Virus record (IMG/VR): IMGVR_UViG_3300045988_126185
Location: 1-30,991 of that record
From: a virus
Length of the DNA: 30,991 nucleotides
Reading direction: 5' to 3' (one strand)
The notes under the pieces were generated by a model, which worked only from the letters and a program-made list of their open reading frames with translations, searched no databases and was not told the origin of the DNA. Shown here piece after piece: positions 5,107-30,991 of the stretch (position 1 is its first letter; every line of letters begins with the position of its first letter). A program made the translations under genes and the position numbers.

Positions 5107-5799
5107 ATGGACAAAAAATCTTATTATGCTATAATACCAGCAAATGTAAGATATGATGATAATTTAAAAGATAAAGCTAAATTATTATATGGAGAAATAA
5201 CAGCTTTATGTAATGAAAAAGGATATTGTTGGGCAACAAATGAATATTTTGCTAATTTATACAATGTTAGCAAAACTACAATATCCACTTTGATTAAAAA
5301 TTTAATAGATAATGGATACATATATTCAAGTTTTATTTACAAAGAAAATTCAAAAGAAATTGATAAAAGAATATTAAGTATAACTAATGTACCCCCTTTA
5401 AAAAATTTTAAAGACCCCCTTAAAGAAAATTTAAAGACCCCTTTAAAAAATTTTAAAGACCCCCTTAAAGAAAATTTAAAGGATAATAATACAATTAATA
5501 ATACAATTAATAATAGTAATAGTTATTATTATATAGAAGAACAATTTGGAAGAACATTAGCACCTGTTGAATATACAAAAATTGATAAATGGAAAGAAAC
5601 TTTTTCAGATGATATTATTAATTATGCAACTGATATAGCTATATTAAATGGGGTTAAGAATTTTAATTATATTGATGGTATTATTAGAAACTGGAAAGAT
5701 AAAAATATAAAAAGCATTAAAGAATTAAAAAATGAAACTTTAATTGAAAAGTCAATAAAAAAAGAATTGTTTGATTACAATTGGTTAGAAGAAGAATAG
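5107..5799 (+). CDS. Replisome organizer or replication initiator (phage_rep_org_N-like wHTH N-terminus plus DnaD-like C-terminal domain).
   Basis: N-terminus YYAIIPANVRYD...LLYGEITALCNEKGYCWATNEYFANLYNVSKTTISTLIKNL. C-terminus DKWKETFSDDIINYATDIAI...NYIDGIIRNW is DnaD/DnaB_2-like. Internal direct repeats are present. Confidence 0.65.
   Translation: MDKKSYYAIIPANVRYDDNLKDKAKLLYGEITALCNEKGYCWATNEYFANLYNVSKTTISTLIKNLIDNGYIYSSFIYKENSKEIDKRILSITNVPPLKNFKDPLKENLKTPLKNFKDPLKENLKDNNTINNTINNSNSYYYIEEQFGRTLAPVEYTKIDKWKETFSDDIINYATDIAILNGVKNFNYIDGIIRNWKDKNIKSIKELKNETLIEKSIKKELFDYNWLEEE
5393..5481. repeat. Four tandem ~21-22-bp C-rich iterons (CCCC(C)TTTAAAAAATTTTAAAGAC alternating with CCCCTTAAAGAAAATTTAAAGAC) inside the replisome-organizer gene, followed by an AT-rich AATAATACAATTAAT x2 tract. 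Candidate origin of replication.
   Basis: Direct repeats read in the sequence. The poly-C runs are conspicuous in an AT-rich genome. Origins lie inside the initiator gene in lambda O and SPP1 gene 38. Confidence 0.5.
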
Positions 5800-5808
5800 A
5801 GGTTAAAT

Positions 5809-6009
5809 ATGGTAGATGATAAATTTGTAAATGATACGATTAGACAATTAAAATGTGGACATAGTTGTTATTTATTTAATCATGAACAAGTTAAGATTAT
5901 AAAAGAAAAATATAGTAAAAAAACGAAATTAGAATTAGAAATAAAAAAAGATGGAGAATATTTTATAGCTAAGCCATCTAAAGCAGTATTAAAAAGCCAA
6001 CATTATTAA
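5809..6009 (+). CDS. Hypothetical protein (66 aa).
   Basis: ORF with RBS AGAGGT. Confidence 0.4.
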   Translation: MVDDKFVNDTIRQLKCGHSCYLFNHEQVKIIKEKYSKKTKLELEIKKDGEYFIAKPSKAVLKSQHY

Positions 6010-6743: not shown

Positions 6744-7060
6744 TGGAAAATGAATTAATGATAGTAGAAAATAATGAATTAGAATTAACAAAAGAAGGAA
6801 TTAAATTTATAAAAAAAGTTCAAAAAGCAAAGGTTGAACTTGCTAAAATGGAAGAACAATTAAAAGATATGTTTAAAGAAAAAATGGAAGAAAACGGTAT
6901 TAAAAAATACACAAGCCCTGATGGTACATTTAAAGCTACTTATTACGAAGAAACTGTTACAAATAGATTTGATAGTACTAAGTTTAAAAAAGAAAATGAA
7001 GAGCTTTATAATCAATATTTAAAACCATATAAAAGAAGTTCTTACATAAAATTCAATTAA
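6743..7060 (+). CDS. Hypothetical protein (105 aa).
   Basis: ORF, ATGA-coupled. Confidence 0.45.
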   Translation: MENELMIVENNELELTKEGIKFIKKVQKAKVELAKMEEQLKDMFKEKMEENGIKKYTSPDGTFKATYYEETVTNRFDSTKFKKENEELYNQYLKPYKRSSYIKFN

Positions 7061-7061
7061 T

Positions 7062-7625
7062 GTGTTAGAATTTATAGAAGAAAGCCATACTTACATATTA
7101 AATGGGGAAATAATACCATCTGTAACACAAATATTACAAGACTTATTTCCTCTTAAATATGATGGTGTTCCACAAGAAATATTAGATAATAAGGCTGAAT
7201 ATGGAACACAACTACATAAATTTATAGAAATAATAGAAAAAAAGAAACCTAAAAAACCTTTAGCATATATAAAACGATATTATAAGCCAAATATATACCA
7301 AGAAGAGAGTTTAAAAGATTATTTAAAAATAAAAGAAAAATATAATATAGTTATTACTGACAGTGAAAAAAGAGTTCATTACAAAAATAAATACTGTGGA
7401 ACATTAGATTTAAAAGGCTATGTTAATAATAAAAGTGCTATAATTGATATAAAAACTATTTACAAATTAGATGAATTATATGTCAGTTGGCAAAATAGTA
7501 TGTATGAATTAGCAGATGGTAAAGTAGACGAATTATATTGCTTATGGTTACCAAAAGGAAGATTAGGAAAATTAATTAAATTAGAAAGAATAGATAAAAA
7601 ATATTTATTAGCAATAATAGAATAG
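7062..7625 (+). CDS. PD-(D/E)XK family nuclease, a putative recombination exonuclease (GTG start).
   Basis: N-terminus HTYILNGEIIPSVTQIL and CGTLDLKGY...IIDIKT (D...D/E-x-K motif); lies within the recombination module. Confidence 0.5.
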   Translation: MLEFIEESHTYILNGEIIPSVTQILQDLFPLKYDGVPQEILDNKAEYGTQLHKFIEIIEKKKPKKPLAYIKRYYKPNIYQEESLKDYLKIKEKYNIVITDSEKRVHYKNKYCGTLDLKGYVNNKSAIIDIKTIYKLDELYVSWQNSMYELADGKVDELYCLWLPKGRLGKLIKLERIDKKYLLAIIE

Positions 7626-14496: not shown

Positions 14497-14736
14497 ATGG
14501 AATTTATAAAACTAAGAGAAGATAGATACATGATTAAAAATAGTAATAATATTGTAGTATCTGAAAAAGAAAAGTTAGAATTAGAAAAAAAGAATTTAAT
14601 TATAGAAGATATTCAAAGCAATGAATGTCAAGGAAGAACAACACAAAGAATAAAAAAAATAGATAGGAAGTTGAAAAATGAAAGAAAACCAATTACAACT
14701 GAAACTATCGAAGAAACAACAGAACCTACTGAATGA
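14497..14736 (+). CDS. Hypothetical protein (79 aa); possible small terminase candidate by position.
   Basis: ORF with RBS AGGAGG, immediately upstream of and overlapping terL. Confidence 0.4.
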   Translation: MEFIKLREDRYMIKNSNNIVVSEKEKLELEKKNLIIEDIQSNECQGRTTQRIKKIDRKLKNERKPITTETIEETTEPTE

Positions 14737-16072
14737 TATAATATCTAAAGATATACCTGAAATATATGTATTAGGTAGTACCCAAAGTGGAAAGACTTAT
14801 GATATATGCTTTGCTTGTATAATGTATGCTCAGGAGCTTTATAAGTATAATCCTAATGAAAAATATTATGGAGCTATAATTGGCTGGAGTGTAACAACAT
14901 TAAAAGGGAACATAGTTGAAGTTATAAAAAATTTCCTTGAGTCAATGGGATTACAAAAAAAGAAAAATGGTAAAGGAGATTATGATTTACACTGGGGTGG
15001 AGATGATGACAAATATTTAGAAATATATAACATTAAATATTTGTTTTTTGGTTTTAACACCGTGTTATCATATAATAAAATATTAGGTAAACCATTAATA
15101 TTTGAATGGATAGATGAAAGTGCTAGGATATTTTCTTCTGCACAATTAAGAGAGAGCTTTAAAGAATTGCCTACAAGACAAATGAGCTATGTAACACATC
15201 CTTATTTAAAAACGATACATAGTTTTAATGTAGAGGGTAATGAAAACCATCCTTATAAAATTGAATATATTGACGGAAAACCTAAAGCAAAGCATTATAC
15301 TTTTTTCCCTTATGACAATCCTAAACTTGATACAGAAGAAGCTATGATAAAAGTAAAACAAATGTTCCCACAAGATAGTGCATTACAAAAACAAAAAATA
15401 TTTAACGAATGGTGCATAGCCGAAGGTAAAGTATTTGATAAATTAAATATAATAGATAGCTTAGATAATTTTGTTATACGTGAAATAGGATTAGGAAATG
15501 ACTATGGTAGTGTAAATCCTACAACATTCGTTCCAATAATGTTGACAATGAATAAATTAACTAAAAAATGGTGCTTAATAAGACTACCAGTTTATTATCA
15601 TAATCCTAAAGAATTAGGAGATACACCAACGACAGAGTTTTATAGTAATCAATTAAGAATGTTTATGGTTTATATAAAAAAGCAATTCCCACACGTTCCT
15701 TTAACTACAAATGTCATAGATAGTGAAGCTTCACATTTTGATAATAGATTAACCGTTGATAATATACAACACACGTTATCTGATAAAACCGACGGAGTTG
15801 ACGCAGGAGTACAACATTTGCAGTCTTTATGCGATAAAGAATACTTTTATATATTAAAAGGCAATAGTATAAAACAATTTACAAATGATGGAAAACCTAT
15901 TTATAGTGGTAAAGATGAAAGCTTAATTGAATTTGAAAGTTATCAATATGATAATGTAAGAAGTATTAAAGAGGGAACAAACTGTTATAAAAAAGAATTA
16001 GACCATAGTGTTGACGCAACACGTTATTTAATCAAAGAATGGGCAAATACTGGAAGATGTCCTATTGTATAG
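14678..16072 (+). CDS. terL: Terminase large subunit.
   Basis: Walker A GSTQSGKT. C-terminal nuclease motif DHSVDATRYL. N-terminal L..KQ..LL. Position upstream of portal. Confidence 0.8.
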   Translation: MKENQLQLKLSKKQQNLLNDIISKDIPEIYVLGSTQSGKTYDICFACIMYAQELYKYNPNEKYYGAIIGWSVTTLKGNIVEVIKNFLESMGLQKKKNGKGDYDLHWGGDDDKYLEIYNIKYLFFGFNTVLSYNKILGKPLIFEWIDESARIFSSAQLRESFKELPTRQMSYVTHPYLKTIHSFNVEGNENHPYKIEYIDGKPKAKHYTFFPYDNPKLDTEEAMIKVKQMFPQDSALQKQKIFNEWCIAEGKVFDKLNIIDSLDNFVIREIGLGNDYGSVNPTTFVPIMLTMNKLTKKWCLIRLPVYYHNPKELGDTPTTEFYSNQLRMFMVYIKKQFPHVPLTTNVIDSEASHFDNRLTVDNIQHTLSDKTDGVDAGVQHLQSLCDKEYFYILKGNSIKQFTNDGKPIYSGKDESLIEFESYQYDNVRSIKEGTNCYKKELDHSVDATRYLIKEWANTGRCPIV

Positions 16073-16147: not shown

Positions 16148-16432
16148 ATGAAAGAAATTTGGAAAGATGTTAAAAATTATGAAGGATTATATCAAGTCAG
16201 CAATTTAGAGTGGTGCACTCCATCTTATAATATTAATTATGGTAAAAGAAATAATAATTTGAATAAGGAAGTATGGCAATACGATTTGCAAGGTAAATTT
16301 ATAAAGAAATGGAAAAGCACGATGGAAATACAGAGAACTTTGGGTTTTAAAAACCAAAATATAAGTTTTGCGTGTTTGGGAGAAAAGCATACGTCACACG
16401 GTTACATATGGAAATATAGGGAGGTTGATTAA
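16148..16432 (+). CDS. Degenerate homing endonuclease: NUMOD4 N-terminus plus C-terminal DNA-binding motif, with the HNH catalytic core missing.
   Basis: MKEIWKDVKNYEGLYQVSNLEW (NUMOD4/I-HmuI-like) then directly ...LGFKNQNISFACLGEKHTSHGYIWKY. No H-N-H core lies between them. Confidence 0.5.
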   Translation: MKEIWKDVKNYEGLYQVSNLEWCTPSYNINYGKRNNNLNKEVWQYDLQGKFIKKWKSTMEIQRTLGFKNQNISFACLGEKHTSHGYIWKYREVD

Positions 16433-16637
16433 AATAGAACTTAGGTGCAAAGCTACTAAAAGATTTTTATTTGAAATAAATATTGAAGAATATTATAATA
16501 ATTTAAAAAAGATGGGTATAGATATAACAACTCCTATAAAAATTAAAATACCGTGTCAAAAATGTAAAATGATAGAAGAATATGAACTATATCCATCACA
16601 TTATGAACATAAAAAGAGTTATAAAAGAGAAAGTTGA
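16368..16637 (+). CDS. Hypothetical protein (start uncertain: TTG at 16368 or TTG at 16425 just after AGGGAGG).
   Basis: ORF. Confidence 0.3.
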   Translation: MRVWEKSIRHTVTYGNIGRLIKIELRCKATKRFLFEINIEEYYNNLKKMGIDITTPIKIKIPCQKCKMIEEYELYPSHYEHKKSYKRES

Positions 16638-16662
16638 CATATAAAATAATATATGTTATAAT
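16634..16662 (+). promoter_or_regulatory. Sigma-A type promoter P4 (TTGACA-17-TGtTATAAT) upstream of the morphogenesis genes.
   Basis: Exact consensus hexamers at 16634-16639 and 16657-16662, with extended TG. Confidence 0.7.
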
Positions 16663-16705
16663 GAATACACTAGAAAAGTGCAATAAATGTGTCGAAACAT
16701 AGGAA

Positions 16706-16740
16706 GCATAAGGATAGTAATATCTTTATGCTTTTTATTT
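16706..16740 (+). terminator. Intrinsic terminator in the P4 leader: an 11-bp stem with GUAA loop, then TTTTTATTTT. Defines a ~70-nt leader or sRNA and an attenuation point before the late genes.
   Basis: Hairpin GCATAAGGATA/TATCTTTATGC plus a U-tract, read directly. Confidence 0.55.
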
Positions 16741-16759
16741 TGTAGAAAGGAGGTATAAA

Positions 16760-17113
16760 ATGATAAAATTACTTAAAAATACGATAGAAAATATAAGTGC
16801 TTTTTTTACTAATATTTGTGACGAAATTGTTAAAAAAATACAAAAAATAAAAAAATATTATGAAAATAGTAAAAAATGGAAATTATATCTCTATTTAAAC
16901 GGACAATGTATTAAATGTTTAAAAATAGATAAAGACTTCGCTCCAATGAATAAAATTTATGTAGTAAAAGTTAAAAATATGGAACATCTATTAGGCACAA
17001 ATAAACCTGTACAAATAGTTGTTAGAAGTTATAAGTATAAATATACTGATGAAGTTAAAAAAACGGCTCATATAGAAGTTATTATATACGAGGGGGTGGA
17101 AATAAATGAATAA
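16760..17113 (+). CDS. Hypothetical protein (117 aa).
   Basis: ORF with RBS AAAGGAGG. Confidence 0.45.
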   Translation: MIKLLKNTIENISAFFTNICDEIVKKIQKIKKYYENSKKWKLYLYLNGQCIKCLKIDKDFAPMNKIYVVKVKNMEHLLGTNKPVQIVVRSYKYKYTDEVKKTAHIEVIIYEGVEINE

Positions 17114-18467
17114 TGCAAGAATAAAATCTGCTTATAATGTTTTGGAAGCTCCTTATATTAAAGTAGAAGCAACTGTAACACAGCCTGGAATAACAAATGG
17201 TAAACCTAACATATATAGAAAATCAAAATATATAATTGCTCCTAGTGGTAAAAAAGTTGCAACATATATAGTTAATCAAATATTTGGTAGTGATTTAGTT
17301 ACGCAAACCGAAGGATTAAATATTAATTGGCTTATGCCTACTTTAAAAGAAAGCTTGGAACTAGCAGTATATGAAGAAGAGTCATTCATATTAATACATA
17401 AGTTTGATGATAAAATTTATCTTGAATGTATTAAAAAATCAGATATACACGATTTAGTACAAAAGTTTGATAAAATAATAAGTGGTACTATAATACAACA
17501 ATATGATACAAACGAAGATACTTACGAATTACATAGAAATATAAAAATTGATAATGGAATAACATATATGGAGATGAAAGCTTACAAACTAGATAGCAAA
17601 TCAAAACTTATTCCTGTTGATATAAATGTATTTAATAAATATACAAGCAATGATTATCTACCAATGTACATATTACCTTATGAAATATTGATTAACATTG
17701 ATATTGGACAAGATTTTTTCAAAGATAGTAAAAAGTTTATTAATGAAGAAATGAAAATATTTAATGTATTTTCTGATGAAATAGAAAAAACTAAAACAAG
17801 AATAGTAACTACTCAACATTTTCAAAGTGGAGATATAGTTGCTAATTGGACACCAGCTAGTACACATTATAAAGTTGATACCTTAACCGTTGGTAATTTA
17901 CAAGATTATTTCACTTTATTACCTGGAGATAAAGACCATCAAATGTTTGAATTTTTACAAGGCAGTATAAGAGTTAATGATTATATTAATTCATTTAAGT
18001 TCTGTGATTATCAAATAATTCAAATGGCAGGATTAAGCCCAGCAAGCTTTGGTTATGAAAAGGACGCATATCAAAATGTAGATAGCATTGATTTAAGTAA
18101 AAACAATTCTGATATGACAATAGAAGCTATTAAAACACAAATAGAGCCACAAATAAATCATTTATTAGAAAATATAGTTAAGGCACAACAAAGTCAAGGA
18201 ATAACTAAAAATCTAATACCTAATTCATTAAATTGGGATTATGGCTTAAATGAAAAGTTAACAGATATGAAAAAACTACAAGTATTAAATAGAGTTCAAA
18301 GTGTTGGAAGTATACCATATTCAATAAAAGCAAAAATAATAACTCCAATATTAAAAAAATTAATAGATGATGACATAGACAAAGAAGATATGCTTACTAT
18401 TGAAAAATTAATAGAAGAAAATGAAAAGGAAAGAAAATCAATAGAAATAGAGTATGGCGAGGTGTAG
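17106..18467 (+). CDS. Portal protein (candidate).
   Basis: 453-aa ORF between terL and the MuF-like gene, following the conserved siphovirus gene order. Confidence 0.55.
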   Translation: MNNARIKSAYNVLEAPYIKVEATVTQPGITNGKPNIYRKSKYIIAPSGKKVATYIVNQIFGSDLVTQTEGLNINWLMPTLKESLELAVYEEESFILIHKFDDKIYLECIKKSDIHDLVQKFDKIISGTIIQQYDTNEDTYELHRNIKIDNGITYMEMKAYKLDSKSKLIPVDINVFNKYTSNDYLPMYILPYEILINIDIGQDFFKDSKKFINEEMKIFNVFSDEIEKTKTRIVTTQHFQSGDIVANWTPASTHYKVDTLTVGNLQDYFTLLPGDKDHQMFEFLQGSIRVNDYINSFKFCDYQIIQMAGLSPASFGYEKDAYQNVDSIDLSKNNSDMTIEAIKTQIEPQINHLLENIVKAQQSQGITKNLIPNSLNWDYGLNEKLTDMKKLQVLNRVQSVGSIPYSIKAKIITPILKKLIDDDIDKEDMLTIEKLIEENEKERKSIEIEYGEV

Positions 18468-18470
18468 TAA

Positions 18471-19445
18471 ATGAAAGATGAAATATCAGAAGTAATCAAT
18501 GAAGAAGTTCAAAGCTATTCAAAAGAAAGTTATGATTATTTAGATGAAGTAAAAAAACTTATATTTACTTGCTTAATAGGAAAAATATCATATGACATAT
18601 TTAAAGGTAAATTAAACAAGATAAATTCTAAATATAATAAAATCGAAAAAAATAGAACTTCAAAAGGTTATAAAAAAGTAAAAGATAAAGTAATCAAATC
18701 AAACAAAACACCTATTTCTAGTAAAAAAATAGAATTTACTGAAAAAGATTTAGCACAATTGCTATTTAAACTAGATAAAACTAGTCAAATTAAAGCAAAA
18801 GATAAATTTATAAGAGTTATTACTAACTACTATAAAACAACGCTTAAAACGGCTAAAAAAGAGTATATAAGCATAGATGACTATTTAAAAAAGAAACTTA
18901 CTCAATATGATAAAGTTGAAAAAGTAGTCGCTTATCATAATCAAGATGGAACAATAAGAGCATATCACGACATAGCAAGTTATAATTCAATGGTTTATAA
19001 CACTAACTTAACAAGTAGTGCATGGAATGAAACAATTAATTATTGTTATGAAAATAATACTGATATAGTTTATGTAGAGCCTCATCCGTTTAGCTGTCCT
19101 TTATGTCAAGAATGGCAAGGCAAGTTTTATAGTTTAACTGGTAAATCATCAAAATATGAGAATATAGAAAATGCTTATAAAGGTGGACTTAAACATCCTA
19201 ATTGTAAACATAATATAACAACAAATGTAGGACAACAAGAAACTGATGATTATAGTTCTAATGAATGGGTTGAAAGATACCAAGCAAGGCAAAAAAAACA
19301 GGCGTTAGAACTAAAAAGAAAAAGATTAAAGACTGACCGAGATATTTATAAAGAATTAAATAACTATGAGGAGGTTGATAAAATCAATGCTCAAATAAGG
19401 ACTTTAAATAGTTCTATAAAAGAGCAAAAAAAATTAATGAAATAG
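18471..19445 (+). CDS. Minor head / head morphogenesis protein (Phage_Mu_F / SPP1 gp7 family).
   Basis: HPNCKH motif (resembling HPNCRC) and surrounding conserved region ...VEPHPFSCPLCQEWQGKFY... Confidence 0.65.
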   Translation: MKDEISEVINEEVQSYSKESYDYLDEVKKLIFTCLIGKISYDIFKGKLNKINSKYNKIEKNRTSKGYKKVKDKVIKSNKTPISSKKIEFTEKDLAQLLFKLDKTSQIKAKDKFIRVITNYYKTTLKTAKKEYISIDDYLKKKLTQYDKVEKVVAYHNQDGTIRAYHDIASYNSMVYNTNLTSSAWNETINYCYENNTDIVYVEPHPFSCPLCQEWQGKFYSLTGKSSKYENIENAYKGGLKHPNCKHNITTNVGQQETDDYSSNEWVERYQARQKKQALELKRKRLKTDRDIYKELNNYEEVDKINAQIRTLNSSIKEQKKLMK

Positions 19446-23320: not shown

Positions 23321-23802
23321 ATGAACGGTGGCGAGGTAGTATTTCATTTTAAAGGCAACGATAAAGATTTGGATAAAAAAACAAGTGAATTAAGTTCTAA
23401 ACTTGGAAATATTGGTAAATCTATCGGTGGAGCATTTTTAAAAGGTACAGCAGTGGCTGGGGCTTCGCTAACAGCTATGGTAGGAGCTAGCGTTAAAGCT
23501 TTTGCTAATGTAGAACAGTCAATAGGTGGTGTTGAAACATTGTTTAAAGATAGTGCTTCAACAGTTATAGCCAATGCAAAAAAAGCTTACACGACGGCTG
23601 GAGTAAGTGCTAATGATTATATGGAGCAGGTAACTTCATTTAGTGCTAGTTTATTACAGTCTCTAGGTGGAGATACAGCTAAGGCAGCAGAATACGCCGA
23701 TAGAGCAATAGTTGATATGTCAGATAATGCTAATAAAATGGGTACATCTATGGAAATGATACAAAATGCATATCAAGGTTTCGCAAAACAAAATTATACG
23801 AT
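23321..23802 (+). CDS. Tape measure protein, exon 1.
   Basis: Conserved TMP N-terminal region ending ...NAYQGFAKQNYT. The unspliced frame terminates at a TAA 17 nt later. Confidence 0.7.
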
Positions 23803-24118
23803 AAAATTAATGTCTGCTTAATTAGTGATAATTAAGTAAGTGTATGTGAACCTTATCAAGGGTGTGAGATTAAAATATAAGTAGGAAATGACTTGTTGAG
23901 ATAATCTTGCTAACTGGGGAAGCCTAAGTCTAAAAGATATGGTTATCCAGTGCCAAGCCTATAAATAGGAAGGTCAAACGACTATGAGTTCGTTACTCAG
24001 TACATTTACTATTGATACGTAAATGGAAGTGCATACTATCTCAAATGTGAGATAAAGATATAGTCTAATCCCACTTTTAAATAAGTGTTAAAGTACTAGG
24101 AAACTAGGGGTATAAATG
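23803..24118 (+). ncRNA. Group I self-splicing intron (no ORF) interrupting the tape-measure gene.
   Basis: Exon junction restores the conserved ...QNYT-M-LDNLKLGYGG. U before the 5' splice site; terminal G (omega-G). Internal group I R-like (ACGACUAUGA) and S-like (AAGAUAUAGUCU) elements that can form P7. P/Q-like CUGGGGAAGCC / AUCCAGUGCC. The 5' boundary is ambiguous by 9 nt (23803 or 23812). Confidence 0.7.
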
Positions 24119-25991
24119 GTTAGATAATTTGAAGCTTGGATATGGTGGTACAAAAGAAGAGATGGCAAGGCTTATAAAAGACGCTTCTAAAATGACCGAT
24201 GTACAAAAAGAATTAAATGTATCGGTTAAAGATGGAGATATGTCATTTGGTAATATAGTTAATGCTATTTCCGTAATGCAAAAGAAAATGGGTATAGCAG
24301 GAACAACTACAAAAGAAGCTTCCGAAACAATAAGCGGGTCTATCAATAGTGCTAAAGCAAGTTTTCAAAACTTTTTAGCAGGTACTGGTTCAATAGACCA
24401 AGTTATTTCAACTTTTTCAACAGCTGGGCAAAATATAATGAAAGCTATTGTTAAGATGGCACCAGATATAATTGATGGAATAGTCACTTTAATAAATGCA
24501 ATTGTACCACAAATACCAGCACTAGTTGGAGCTTTACTACCAACTGTTATAAATGGTATTTCTTCACTTATAAGTGGCTTAGCTGGGGCTTTGCCAGAAT
24601 TATTAAAAGTATTAATGGATACATTAATAGAACAAGGACCGATAATATTACAAACATTAATGGATAGTGTTTTAGATATAGTTTATTCTCTTTCTGATAC
24701 ATTACCAACATTAATACCACAAATAGTTAAAGCCATAATGACTTTATTACCAGTATTATTGAGTAATATGCCAGCTTTTATGAAAGCAGGAATTGAATTA
24801 ATAATGGCTGTGATAAATGGATTAGTTGATAGTATTCCTATTTTAATTGATATGCTACCAGATTTAATAGAAGAATTGGTTAATGGTCTTATATCTGCAC
24901 TACCTATGCTATTAGGTGTAGGAATGGCTATAAATATAAAACTTGCACAAGCAATTATTAAAGCAGTGCCAAAATTAATAAGTTCTATACCAAAAATTAT
25001 TAATTCTTTAGTAGAAGGATTTAAAAAAGGAGTATCAAATTTTGCCTTTGTAGGTAAAAGTTTAATTGATGGATTAGGCTCAGAAATAACAACAGGTGCG
25101 TCACAATTAGGTCAAAAAATATTAACATCTGTAACAAATTTCTTTACTAAAACTATACCTTCAATATTTAATAATTTTGTTTCATTCTTAGCTAGTATTC
25201 CTGCAAAAATAGGGGAATTTGTGCAAGGAGTTATATCATTTATTGGGCAAATACCTTACTATGTAGGATATGCAATAGGGTATGTAATAGGATTTATTGC
25301 TTCTATACCTTTTAGATTATGGGAAATTTTAACTTCTGCAGTAGAAAAAGTAAAAGAGTTCGGGATTTCAATATGGACATGGATAACTGTTGATTTACCA
25401 CAAATAATACAAGGTATCATCAACTGGTTTGCACAATTACCAGGTAGAATATGGACATGGCTAACAACTACTATATCAAATTTTGCTACATGGTTAGGAA
25501 ATATGAAAACTAAAGCAGTTGAAGGAATTAAAAAAGTTGCAAATTCAATTGTAAATGGGTTCAAATCTTTACCAGATAAAATATTCAATGTAGGTAAAAA
25601 CCTTATCCGTGGATTATGGAACGGTATAGTAGGAATGAAAGATTGGATTAGTGGAAAGGTTAAAGGATTTGCTTCTGGAGTTATAAATGGATTTAAAAAA
25701 TCGTTCGGAGTTCATAGTCCGTCACGTGAGTTTGCTATAATAGGTAGATTTAATATGCTAGGATTAGAAAAAGGTATGGAAGATATGCAACCTGATTTAC
25801 AAAAATCAATAAATGGTATGTTTGATTTATCGCCTAGTTTATATGGTTCTACAAGTAATAATTTAAGTCCAAATATAAATGTAACAGTAAATAATAACAT
25901 GAAACAAGACCCACTAGGACAAATGATTAATGATGTTAAAACTTTCTCTGGTGGCTCTAAAAACGATTATAGTTATGGAATGGGAGTGTAG
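24119..25991 (+). CDS. Tape measure protein, exon 2.
   Basis: Open frame from 24108. (M)LDNLKLGYGGTKEEMARL... is the conserved TMP continuation, and the frame is contiguous with exon 1 after removing 316 nt. Confidence 0.7.
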
Positions 25992-30867: not shown

Positions 30868-30991
30868 ATGATAGATTTTATAAATAATAATTTAAACTTG
30901 ATATTAAGTATATTAGGAACAATTTTAACTGCTGTTGGTGGTTATATAGCTAAATTATATAAAAAGTATATAAATGATAAACAAAAAAAAC
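30868..30991 (+). CDS. Holin, 5' portion (continues at window base 120 via the terminal repeat).
   Basis: ATG at 30868 with RBS AGGAGG. Its sequence from 30873 onward is identical to window 1-119, which continues in frame to the stop at 319. Confidence 0.6.
   Translation, partial: MIDFINNNLNLILSILGTILTAVGGYIAKLYKKYINDKQKK

Follow-up and report, generated by a model that had tools for sequence, protein, structure and literature searches.

We examined a 30,991-nt stretch of DNA from an uncultured phage (IMG/VR virus record IMGVR_UViG_3300045988_126185, positions 1 to 30,991), here called the window, in which the gene for the tape-measure protein (TMP) is split by a 316-nt insert at positions 23803 to 24118. 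Judging from sequence comparison, this insert is very probably a catalytically intact, splicing-competent group I intron that carries no endonuclease gene. We read it as a group I intron in the TMP gene because it matches the full length of the group I covariance model, its removal leaves an exact in-frame junction, its predicted fold is supported by covariation, and related introns that interrupt this codon retain a gene for a homing endonuclease. The same evidence bears out the original prediction, made from the letters of the window, that a group I intron without an open reading frame (ORF) interrupts the TMP gene. All window features described below are on the + strand.

The interrupted tape-measure gene

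The upstream part of the gene lies in an ORF at 23321 to 23821, whose translation runs ...AYQGFAKQNYT, then IKLMSA and a stop codon. The downstream part lies in an ORF at 24129 to 25991 that is open back to 24108 and is translated as ...LDNLKLGYGGTKEEM.... As had been predicted, the TMP frame stops 17 nt past ...AKQNYT, at a TAA (23819 to 23821) 17 nt after T23802, and resumes as (M)LDNLKLGYGG at 24119/24120. Removing the 316 nt from 23803 to 24118 joins AT (23801 to 23802) and G24119 into an ATG methionine codon and leaves a single ORF of 784 codons; the claim that excision keeps the frame therefore holds. By ORF and translation, exon 1 spans 23321 to 23802 (160 codons plus AT, the first two bases of the junction methionine codon), and exon 2 spans 24119 to 25991, its G completing that codon before LDNLKLGYGG and its end including the stop codon. 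The sequence across the ligated exons is ...AATTATACGAT joined to GTTAGATAAT... (predicted junction, 23802/24119). Exon 1 ends in U (T23802) and the insert ends in G (G24118), and the insert contains no ORF of 20 or more amino acids, all in agreement with what had been claimed for it. The spliced 784-aa protein matches the TMP family phrog_58 with an E-value of 5.6e-87 over residues 16 to 755, and a match to phrog_6900 crosses the junction (residues 11 to 183 of the spliced protein).

With residues 1 to 330 of the spliced protein as the query, we searched for homologues and examined the best 120 of thousands of matches. In all 120, the junction is covered by a single uninterrupted protein (identity up to 80%, coverage 100%) and shows Y-x-(M/L) followed directly by LDNLKLGYGG. 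The stretch FAKQNYTM followed by LDNLKLGYGG is present at the junction in 110 of these 120; the other 10 have the same length and one to four changed positions, only in the QNYTM stretch before the junction. The insertion falls inside the methionine codon of QGFAKQNYT-M-LDNLKLGYGGT, the most conserved motif of the TMP. Homing elements typically target the most conserved stretch of a gene.

The homologues also fix the 5′ boundary, which had been given as ambiguous by 9 nt (23803 or 23812). The extra IKL residues expected from a boundary at 23812 are found in none of the best 120 homologues. We place the 5′ splice site after T23802 because this is the layout of all of them, and the ambiguity is resolved to 23803. 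The alternative site at 23811/23812 was ruled out, as IKL is absent from the homologues and no guide pairing supports it. Both P1 and P10, described below, fit the boundary at 23803. A further claim, that the insert is GC-richer than its surroundings, stands only in part: at 32.6% GC, the insert exceeds the window mean of 26.1% and exon 2 (30.9%), but not exon 1, which has 36.7%, nor the 300-nt windows that adjoin the insert.

Covariance-model match and predicted fold

When the whole window was searched at the Rfam gathering threshold, no match of any kind was returned. With reporting by E-value, the group I intron family RF00028 (Intron_gpI, gathering score 50 bits) matched 23842 to 24088 over model positions 1 to 253, which constitute the full model, at 48.3 bits (E = 3.6e-11 when 701 nt were searched, 1.6e-9 for the whole window). 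This was the sole match, with no other RNA families or further introns in the window at E of 0.01 or less. The Rfam search that the original prediction proposed as a check is therefore negative at the gathering cutoff (48.3 versus 50 bits) and positive, at full length, by E-value. A negative result at default settings would be a false refutation here, because the score falls only narrowly under the cutoff. A relative that is 96% identical (L006, in our numbering of loci) scores 44.1 bits when a 721-nt stretch is searched (6900 to 7620), while the same E-value search of 2.5 kb of that contig (5200 to 7700) misses its first intron, which shows that introns of this family sit at the margin of what the speed filters of the search let through.

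These results bear on the reading in which the insert is an ordinary spacer between two tail genes that resembles a group I intron by chance, or else an insertion of some other kind (group II intron, intein, insertion sequence [IS] or miniature inverted-repeat transposable element). The ORF layout by itself, with two adjacent ORFs about 300 nt apart, would fit such a spacer. We give this reading almost no credence: single proteins run across this point in all of the best 120 homologues, the whole-window match to RF00028 is strong and unaccompanied by any other RNA family, and the covariation described below fits a group I fold. The features expected of a group II intron, an intein, or an IS element were not found, given that no other Rfam family reaches E of 0.01, that the TMP frame contains stops, and that the insert has no protein-coding sequence; the last point excludes an intein or IS element.

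We derived the structure of the intron by hand; window coordinates equal 23802 plus the intron position. P1 pairs exon GAU (23800 to 23802) with a guide GUC (23812 to 23814), placing a U23802.G23812 wobble at the 5′ splice site. All 16 same-site introns have its three pairs (U23802.G23812, A23801-U23813, and G23800-C23814) without variation. Directly upstream of this guide lies the P10 guide UUAAU (23807 to 23811), which pairs with GUUAG (24119 to 24123) of exon 2; across the relatives, 97.5% of P10 cells are paired, with one-sided changes of U.G to C-G and of U-A to U.G. P2 (23817 to 23836) is a hairpin of 8 bp closed by a GUGA (GNRA) tetraloop, with six of its eight pairs supported by compensatory changes. 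The 5′ strand of P3, GUAUGUG (23842 to 23848), pairs with the 3′ strand UGCAUAC (24030 to 24036), and three of seven pairs are compensatory, the variants of GUAUG/CAUAC being GUACG/CGUAC, GGAUG/CAUCC, GUGGG/CCCAC, and GAAUG/CAUUC. We rejected GGUGUG (23861 to 23866) as the P3 5′ strand, since it stays invariant while the P3 3′ strand becomes CCCAC in three relatives (L036, L043, and L056).

Between P3 and P4 are two extra hairpins. P3.1 (CCUU-AUC-AAGG, 23851 to 23861) is flanked by invariant GUGAA and GGUGUG and is 100% paired, with two of four pairs compensatory; a first register (beginning with A48-U61) showed only one-sided changes and 90% pairing, and a shift of one position raised pairing to 100%. 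P3.2 (23866 to 23908) has a variable two-part stem, compensatory in five of seven outer pairs and all five inner pairs, and a AGGAAAUG loop that is invariant in 13 of 16 sequences. The Rfam alignment places P3 on AAUCU-UG just before P4, but in the window this segment does not pair with the 3′ strand of P3 and covaries instead with 23866 to 23872, making it part of the P3.2 outer stem. Forcing P3 onto the 3′ strand of P3.2 probably costs the bits by which the Rfam score falls below threshold.

J3/4 and the P4-P5-P5a domain together occupy 23909 to 23951 (P4-P5-P5a, 23913 to 23951), with ACUGGG (23913 to 23918) and UCCAGU (23946 to 23951) forming P4. The P/Q-like CUGGGG/CCAG elements pointed out in the original prediction are present and correspond to this helix. 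P6 (23952 to 23974) is nearly invariant, with one compensatory pair. The R-like ACGACUAU (23978 to 23985) and S-like AAGAUAUAGUCU (24055 to 24066), singled out at the same time as able to form P7, do so through GACUAU (23980 to 23985) and AUAGUC (24060 to 24065), which are invariant in all 16 introns and agree with the Rfam consensus. P7 is expected to be the guanosine-binding helix. P7.1 (23986 to 23998) and P7.2 (24003 to 24025) lie between P7 and the P3 3′ strand; both are 100% paired, with two of four and five of seven pairs compensatory, respectively. P8 (24037 to 24054) is a hairpin of 7 bp with an AAUG loop and four compensatory pairs, and it is the site of the endonuclease ORF in relatives. 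The P9 three-way junction (24070 to 24110) consists of a CCC/GGG stem, which becomes CCG/CGG in phage Twort, enclosing P9a (24073 to 24086) and P9b (24096 to 24107); P9b is CUAG-GAAA-CUAG, with compensatory changes at four of four pairs. Omega-G, at 24118, is the last base of the intron and marks the 3′ splice site, and every same-site intron ends in G directly before GTT(A/G)GA. With P7.1, P7.2, and the two extra hairpins between P3 and P4, the predicted fold is of the subgroup IA type. P7.1/P7.2 is a trait common to IA introns, among them IA2-like phage introns such as those of T4 (td) and Twort. P3.1 is among the optional pairings of group I introns (PMC3873408).

The window copy has no nonstandard pair in the hand-built structure, and every core helix is intact. 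When the 316 nt were folded without constraints, the minimum free energy structure (-77 kcal/mol, z = -3.5) contained the same helices. To score the structure, we aligned 16 diverse introns from the same TMP site, trimming the insert in the P8 loop. Standard pairs fill 97.2% of cells, compared to 83.7% in 500 shuffled alignments and 33 to 42% when pairing partners were slid by one to three columns. Both sides have changed in 44 of 93 pairs, compared to 27.4 in shuffled alignments (none of 500 reaching 44) and 4 to 12 in slid controls, and the covariation score is 0.378, compared to 0.132 (0 of 500 shuffles reaching the observed value) and 0.04 to 0.08. Compensatory changes support P2, P3, P3.1, both parts of P3.2, P4, P5/P5a, P6 (one pair), P7.1, P7.2, P8, P9a, and P9b.

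Several points weigh against a splicing-competent group I intron. The RF00028 score is 1.7 bits short of the gathering score, P1 has only 3 bp (4 with a bulge), and the two hairpins between P3 and P4 depart from the Rfam consensus layout. Covariation is mute on P1, P7, most of P6, and the P9 stem, all of which are invariant. In addition, the same 16 sequences served in part to build the structure, so that its contrast with the slid controls is exaggerated, and because several of the 16 rows are close relatives, there were fewer independent events than the cell counts imply. Flattering as the counts are, the distinct pair types found within single helices, such as the four variants of P3, would be hard to explain otherwise.

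In the splicing pathway that we propose, the late transcript would fold so that the guide GUC (23812 to 23814) and exon GAU form P1 with its U23802.G23812 wobble, and a free guanosine held in P7 would attack after U23802. UUAAU (23807 to 23811) would then pair with GUUAG (24119 to 24123) as P10, omega-G24118 would take the place of the cofactor, and exon ligation would produce the mRNA for the 784-aa TMP. Ribosomes on unspliced RNA would halt at the TAA at 23819 to 23821, ahead of the catalytic core. This in-frame stop lies six codons into the intron, inside the 5′ strand of P2, and the one relative checked for it (L001, Lactococcus phage 38502) has an in-frame TAA in the matching P2 strand. 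Exon 2 has no in-frame ATG; its earliest possible start is the TTG at 24129, which lies past the conserved LDN residues and, by eye, lacks a Shine-Dalgarno sequence. The ATG at 24116 lies in another frame, which meets a stop after three codons. Because unspliced RNA stops at 23819 to 23821 and exon 2 has no credible start of its own, a functional TMP needs splicing, and because the TMP is essential for tail assembly, splicing must persist.

The insert might instead be a decayed remnant that no longer splices, leaving either a TMP pseudogene in a defective phage or two polypeptides, a 166-aa N-terminal product and an internally started C-terminal one. The loss of the homing endonuclease gene is the stage that precedes decay in the life cycle of such introns, the RF00028 score is under the gathering threshold, and the database records of relatives list two TMP coding sequences (CDSs). 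We nevertheless regard a remnant as improbable, given the intact core helices and the concordant minimum free energy fold of the window copy, the two long open exons with their exact join, and the poor prospects of an internal start at 24129. Furthermore, at least 11 other contigs have ORF-less copies that retain 94 to 100% identity and the same pairings.

Same-site relatives and loss of the endonuclease gene

We fetched relatives of the intron with the 18-mer AGGAAGGTCAAACGACTA, which spans the end of P6 and the 5′ strand of P7. This 18-mer occurs in 56 IMG/VR contigs and at 30 loci from GTDB representative genomes. Introns at the same TMP codon, recognized by the 18-mer lying approximately 165 to 230 nt past ...AAYTAYACNAT, are present in 21 viral contigs and at three loci of metagenome-assembled genomes (MAGs), two in "Bacilli bacterium MAG291" and one in a Lachnospira MAG. 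Lactococcus phage 38502 (KX160204) and Streptococcus phage Str-PAP-1 (NC_028666) also have an intron at this site. We loosely suppose that the host of the window phage is probably a gut member of the class Bacilli.

The same-site introns differ in how much of an endonuclease gene they retain. In relatives of 842 to 882 nt, all the extra sequence is in the P8 loop (P8 elements of 519 to 580 nt), which holds an ORF of 160 to 169 aa with NUMOD4 and HNH_3 domains, the final codons of which are the 3′ strands of P8 and P7. Two such introns (L030 and L069) have an intact endonuclease ORF and are 96 to 98% identical to the window intron outside P8. In a third (L037), this ORF is frameshifted, and two others (L012 and L055) have partial deletions that keep 88 to 90 nt of the insert. 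The window copy and about ten other contigs have only a minimal P8 hairpin of 16 to 18 nt; in keeping with this, no homing endonuclease ORF is present in the window intron, which has no ORF of at least 20 aa. Because relatives carry the endonuclease gene in P8 in intact, frameshifted, and partly deleted form, the window intron can be described as a nonautonomous deletion derivative. Its predicted ancestor is an 842-nt mobile intron with a NUMOD4/HNH_3 gene in the P8 loop, since cleanly deleted. Homing elements follow a course of invasion, endonuclease decay, and then deletion, and the same-site copies constitute a natural series through the homing cycle, from intact gene through frameshift and partial deletion to clean deletion. 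With its endonuclease gene deleted, the window intron would be incapable of autonomous homing and would presumably spread only via ordinary recombination or through an enzyme supplied by a co-infecting relative.

Copies of the intron are 94 to 100% identical where the TMP exons on either side share 45 to 81% identity and the phage genomes about 73 to 75%. The closest phage that we found (L002, ENA ERZ28810593 NODE_1425) is 82.5% identical over 12 kb and syntenic, and its TMP gene is uninterrupted. Because the intron is far more conserved than the exons and the closest phage lacks it, the intron appears to have moved among diverged TMP genes, which points to horizontal spread. At megablast level, window positions 6000 to 30991 have no near-identical phage in GenBank, and only the 3′ domain of the intron matches GenBank phages; positions 24050 to 24118 are 87 to 97% identical over 60 to 69 nt to L089 (2501 to 2569) and L090 (1501 to 1564), loci of Twort-like Staphylococcus myoviruses with introns in the large-terminase and recombinase genes. 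Because the 3′ domain is alike while the 5′ parts are unrelated, we propose modular exchange between introns.

Such a distribution suggests a selfish passenger with no evident benefit to the phage. One could imagine that the functional intron has also been co-opted, with splicing controlling the timing or dosage of TMP or with a short N-terminal product made deliberately. The early in-frame stop, shared with Lactococcus phage 38502, is compatible with this idea, as is phrog_6900, a "TMP" family of 235 positions that covers only the N-terminal 183 residues; the latter, however, may merely gather misannotated exon 1 fragments, and early stops are typical of group I introns in bacteria and phages. 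No intron is present in the closest phage relative or in most homologues, and the spread of the element is uncoupled from the phylogeny of the host gene, as expected of a selfish element. We therefore consider co-option very improbable, and take the window intron to be a passenger.

Three of the same-site relatives (L036, L043, and L056) have an insertion of about 50 nt in the P6 loop (alignment columns 192 to 233). This enlarged loop contains a sigma-70-like promoter upstream of the ORF borne by P8, as does that of Twort terminase intron 1 (L089, approximately 1385 to 1420). The promoter consists of TTGTAT, TTGCAT, or TTGACT, 17 nt, and TATAAT, often with a TG extension, which suggests that the endonuclease gene may be transcribed independently from within the intron.

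Seven related viral contigs have a second ORF-less insert of 231 to 233 nt, situated 22 nt downstream of the 3′ splice site of the first intron (L006, at 6989 to 7220 on the - strand, L012, L014, L018, L026, L052, and L054); the window has no second insert. The exon between the two inserts is G TTA GAT AAT TTA AAA CTC GGT, and the TMP resumes with TAT GGT GG. The second insert begins after U and ends in G, a P1-like ACUCGGU/GCCGAGU pairing is visible, and its only match to RF00028 is a 13-bit local match to P4-P5. In many introns with the 18-mer outside the TMP gene (L004, L015, L021, L028, L031, L032, and others), we observed a shared 5′ layout, consisting of the P3 strand, GUGAAC, a hairpin, GGUGUG, the AGGAAAUG hairpin, GCUAAC, and P4, and P3 covaries there too. 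This layout is evidently that of a broader phage intron lineage and not of the window copy alone, and the lineage appears to score near or below the Rfam gathering threshold in the two copies tested (48.3 and 44.1 bits). It is tempting, though in our view doubtful, to combine these observations and propose that the 5′ layout defines a distinct, underannotated IA subclass scoring systematically just below the Rfam gathering score, with the 231- to 233-nt insert as a further small, divergent self-splicing element. If the second insert does self-splice, the TMP genes concerned would have two introns separated by a 22-nt mini-exon.

Gene context, annotation and comparison with known systems

The window is a low-GC segment of a phage genome with all major ORFs on the + strand. 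Upstream of the TMP gene are genes for a lysin (328 to 1182, Amidase_2), a replication protein (5107 to 5799), the large terminase (14678 to 16072), the portal (17106 to 18467), and a minor head protein (18471 to 19445). Tail genes come next, and Pfam and PHROGs matches of these neighboring ORFs were mostly uninformative. In the closest phage (L002), a reverse transcriptase (RVT_1, 16273 to 17328) lies just past the tail genes, beside a Phage_tail_APC protein; it may represent a diversity-generating retroelement. Up to its end at 30991, the window showed no counterpart.

On this reading, the ORFs at 23321 to 23821 and 24129 to 25991 are to be annotated as one 784-aa TMP, join(23321..23802, 24119..25991), and predictions of tail length from TMP size depend on the joined gene. 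The same correction applies to Lactococcus phage 38502 and Streptococcus phage Str-PAP-1. In the record of phage 38502, the intron is unannotated and the TMP appears as two CDSs (L001, 3499 to 4035 and 4879 to 6861) separated by an "HNH endonuclease," the downstream CDS starting from an internal TTG; in the record of Str-PAP-1 (L050), the intron stretch has no annotated feature. Because the default Rfam threshold misses this family (48.3 and 44.1 versus 50 bits), censuses of phage introns that rely on this threshold undercount.

The original prediction called a TMP location less usual for a group I intron, which is partly right. TMP introns have been known since 2008 from prophages of Bacillus cereus, B. 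weihenstephanensis, and B. anthracis, at three sites and of subclasses IA1/IA2 (PMC2504315). Several of these B. cereus-group introns (TMP-IVS1, -IVS2, and -IVS3a/b) have no complete endonuclease gene (Tourasse & Kolsto 2008, PMC2504315), and a TMP intron in Lactobacillus phage JCL1032 is listed in the same work (PMC2504315). The TMP gene has been described as "frequently interrupted" in a study that used RNA-seq and RT-PCR to demonstrate splicing of the vibriophage ICP1 transcript to encode a full-length TMP (Barth et al. 2023, PMC10448857). Among virion genes other than TMP, introns are known in the Tuc2009 capsid gene and in capsid and tail genes of Cluster J mycobacteriophages (PMC3706429). 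The B. cereus-group introns (IA1/IA2) resemble the window intron in that they are group I introns in conserved parts of the TMP gene, in temperate phages of Firmicutes, and are shared between otherwise different phages. Unlike the window intron, they reside in different TMPs, which exceed 1,200 aa in lambdaBa01-like phages. Our searches returned no sequence match to the TMP introns of Bacillus prophages; the only Bacillus matches were to myoviruses elsewhere.

The introns of phages 38502 and Str-PAP-1 are 70 to 75% identical to the window intron and share its insertion point (ACGAU before the intron, a terminal G, and GUU(A/G)GAU after it), P1/P10, core, and P3.1/P3.2 layout. In contrast to the window intron, they are 859 to 864 nt long with a 163-aa NUMOD4/HNH_3 ORF in the P8 loop, their P9a is longer, and their P3.2, a short hairpin rich in A, lacks the AGGAAAUG loop. 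Intron 1 of the Twort large-terminase/orf142 gene and the intron in the UvsX/RecA-like gene of Alsa_3 resemble the window intron in the 3′ domain, from the P7 3′ strand through P9, P9a, and P9b to omega-G, and have an HNH-type endonuclease ORF just upstream of this shared domain. Their 5′ two-thirds and host genes are unrelated to ours, so the likeness is modular.

Foley and colleagues reportedly described in 2000 a lysin-gene intron of Streptococcus thermophilus phages with ORF-less deletion derivatives in related phages. As represented by a later paper that cites it (PMC3952083), that system would parallel ours in having, at one site, an endonuclease-bearing intron together with progressively deleted derivatives, while its host gene and intron sequence are different. 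The ICP1 system is similar in that the TMP gene is split and an HNH_3 endonuclease is associated (PMC10448857); it differs in its Gram-negative host, in the unrelated phage, and in the presence of the endonuclease gene that the window intron lacks. Given that TMP introns are already known, the intron described here is a further well-supported case, in an uncultured phage, and leaves the understanding of group I introns unchanged.

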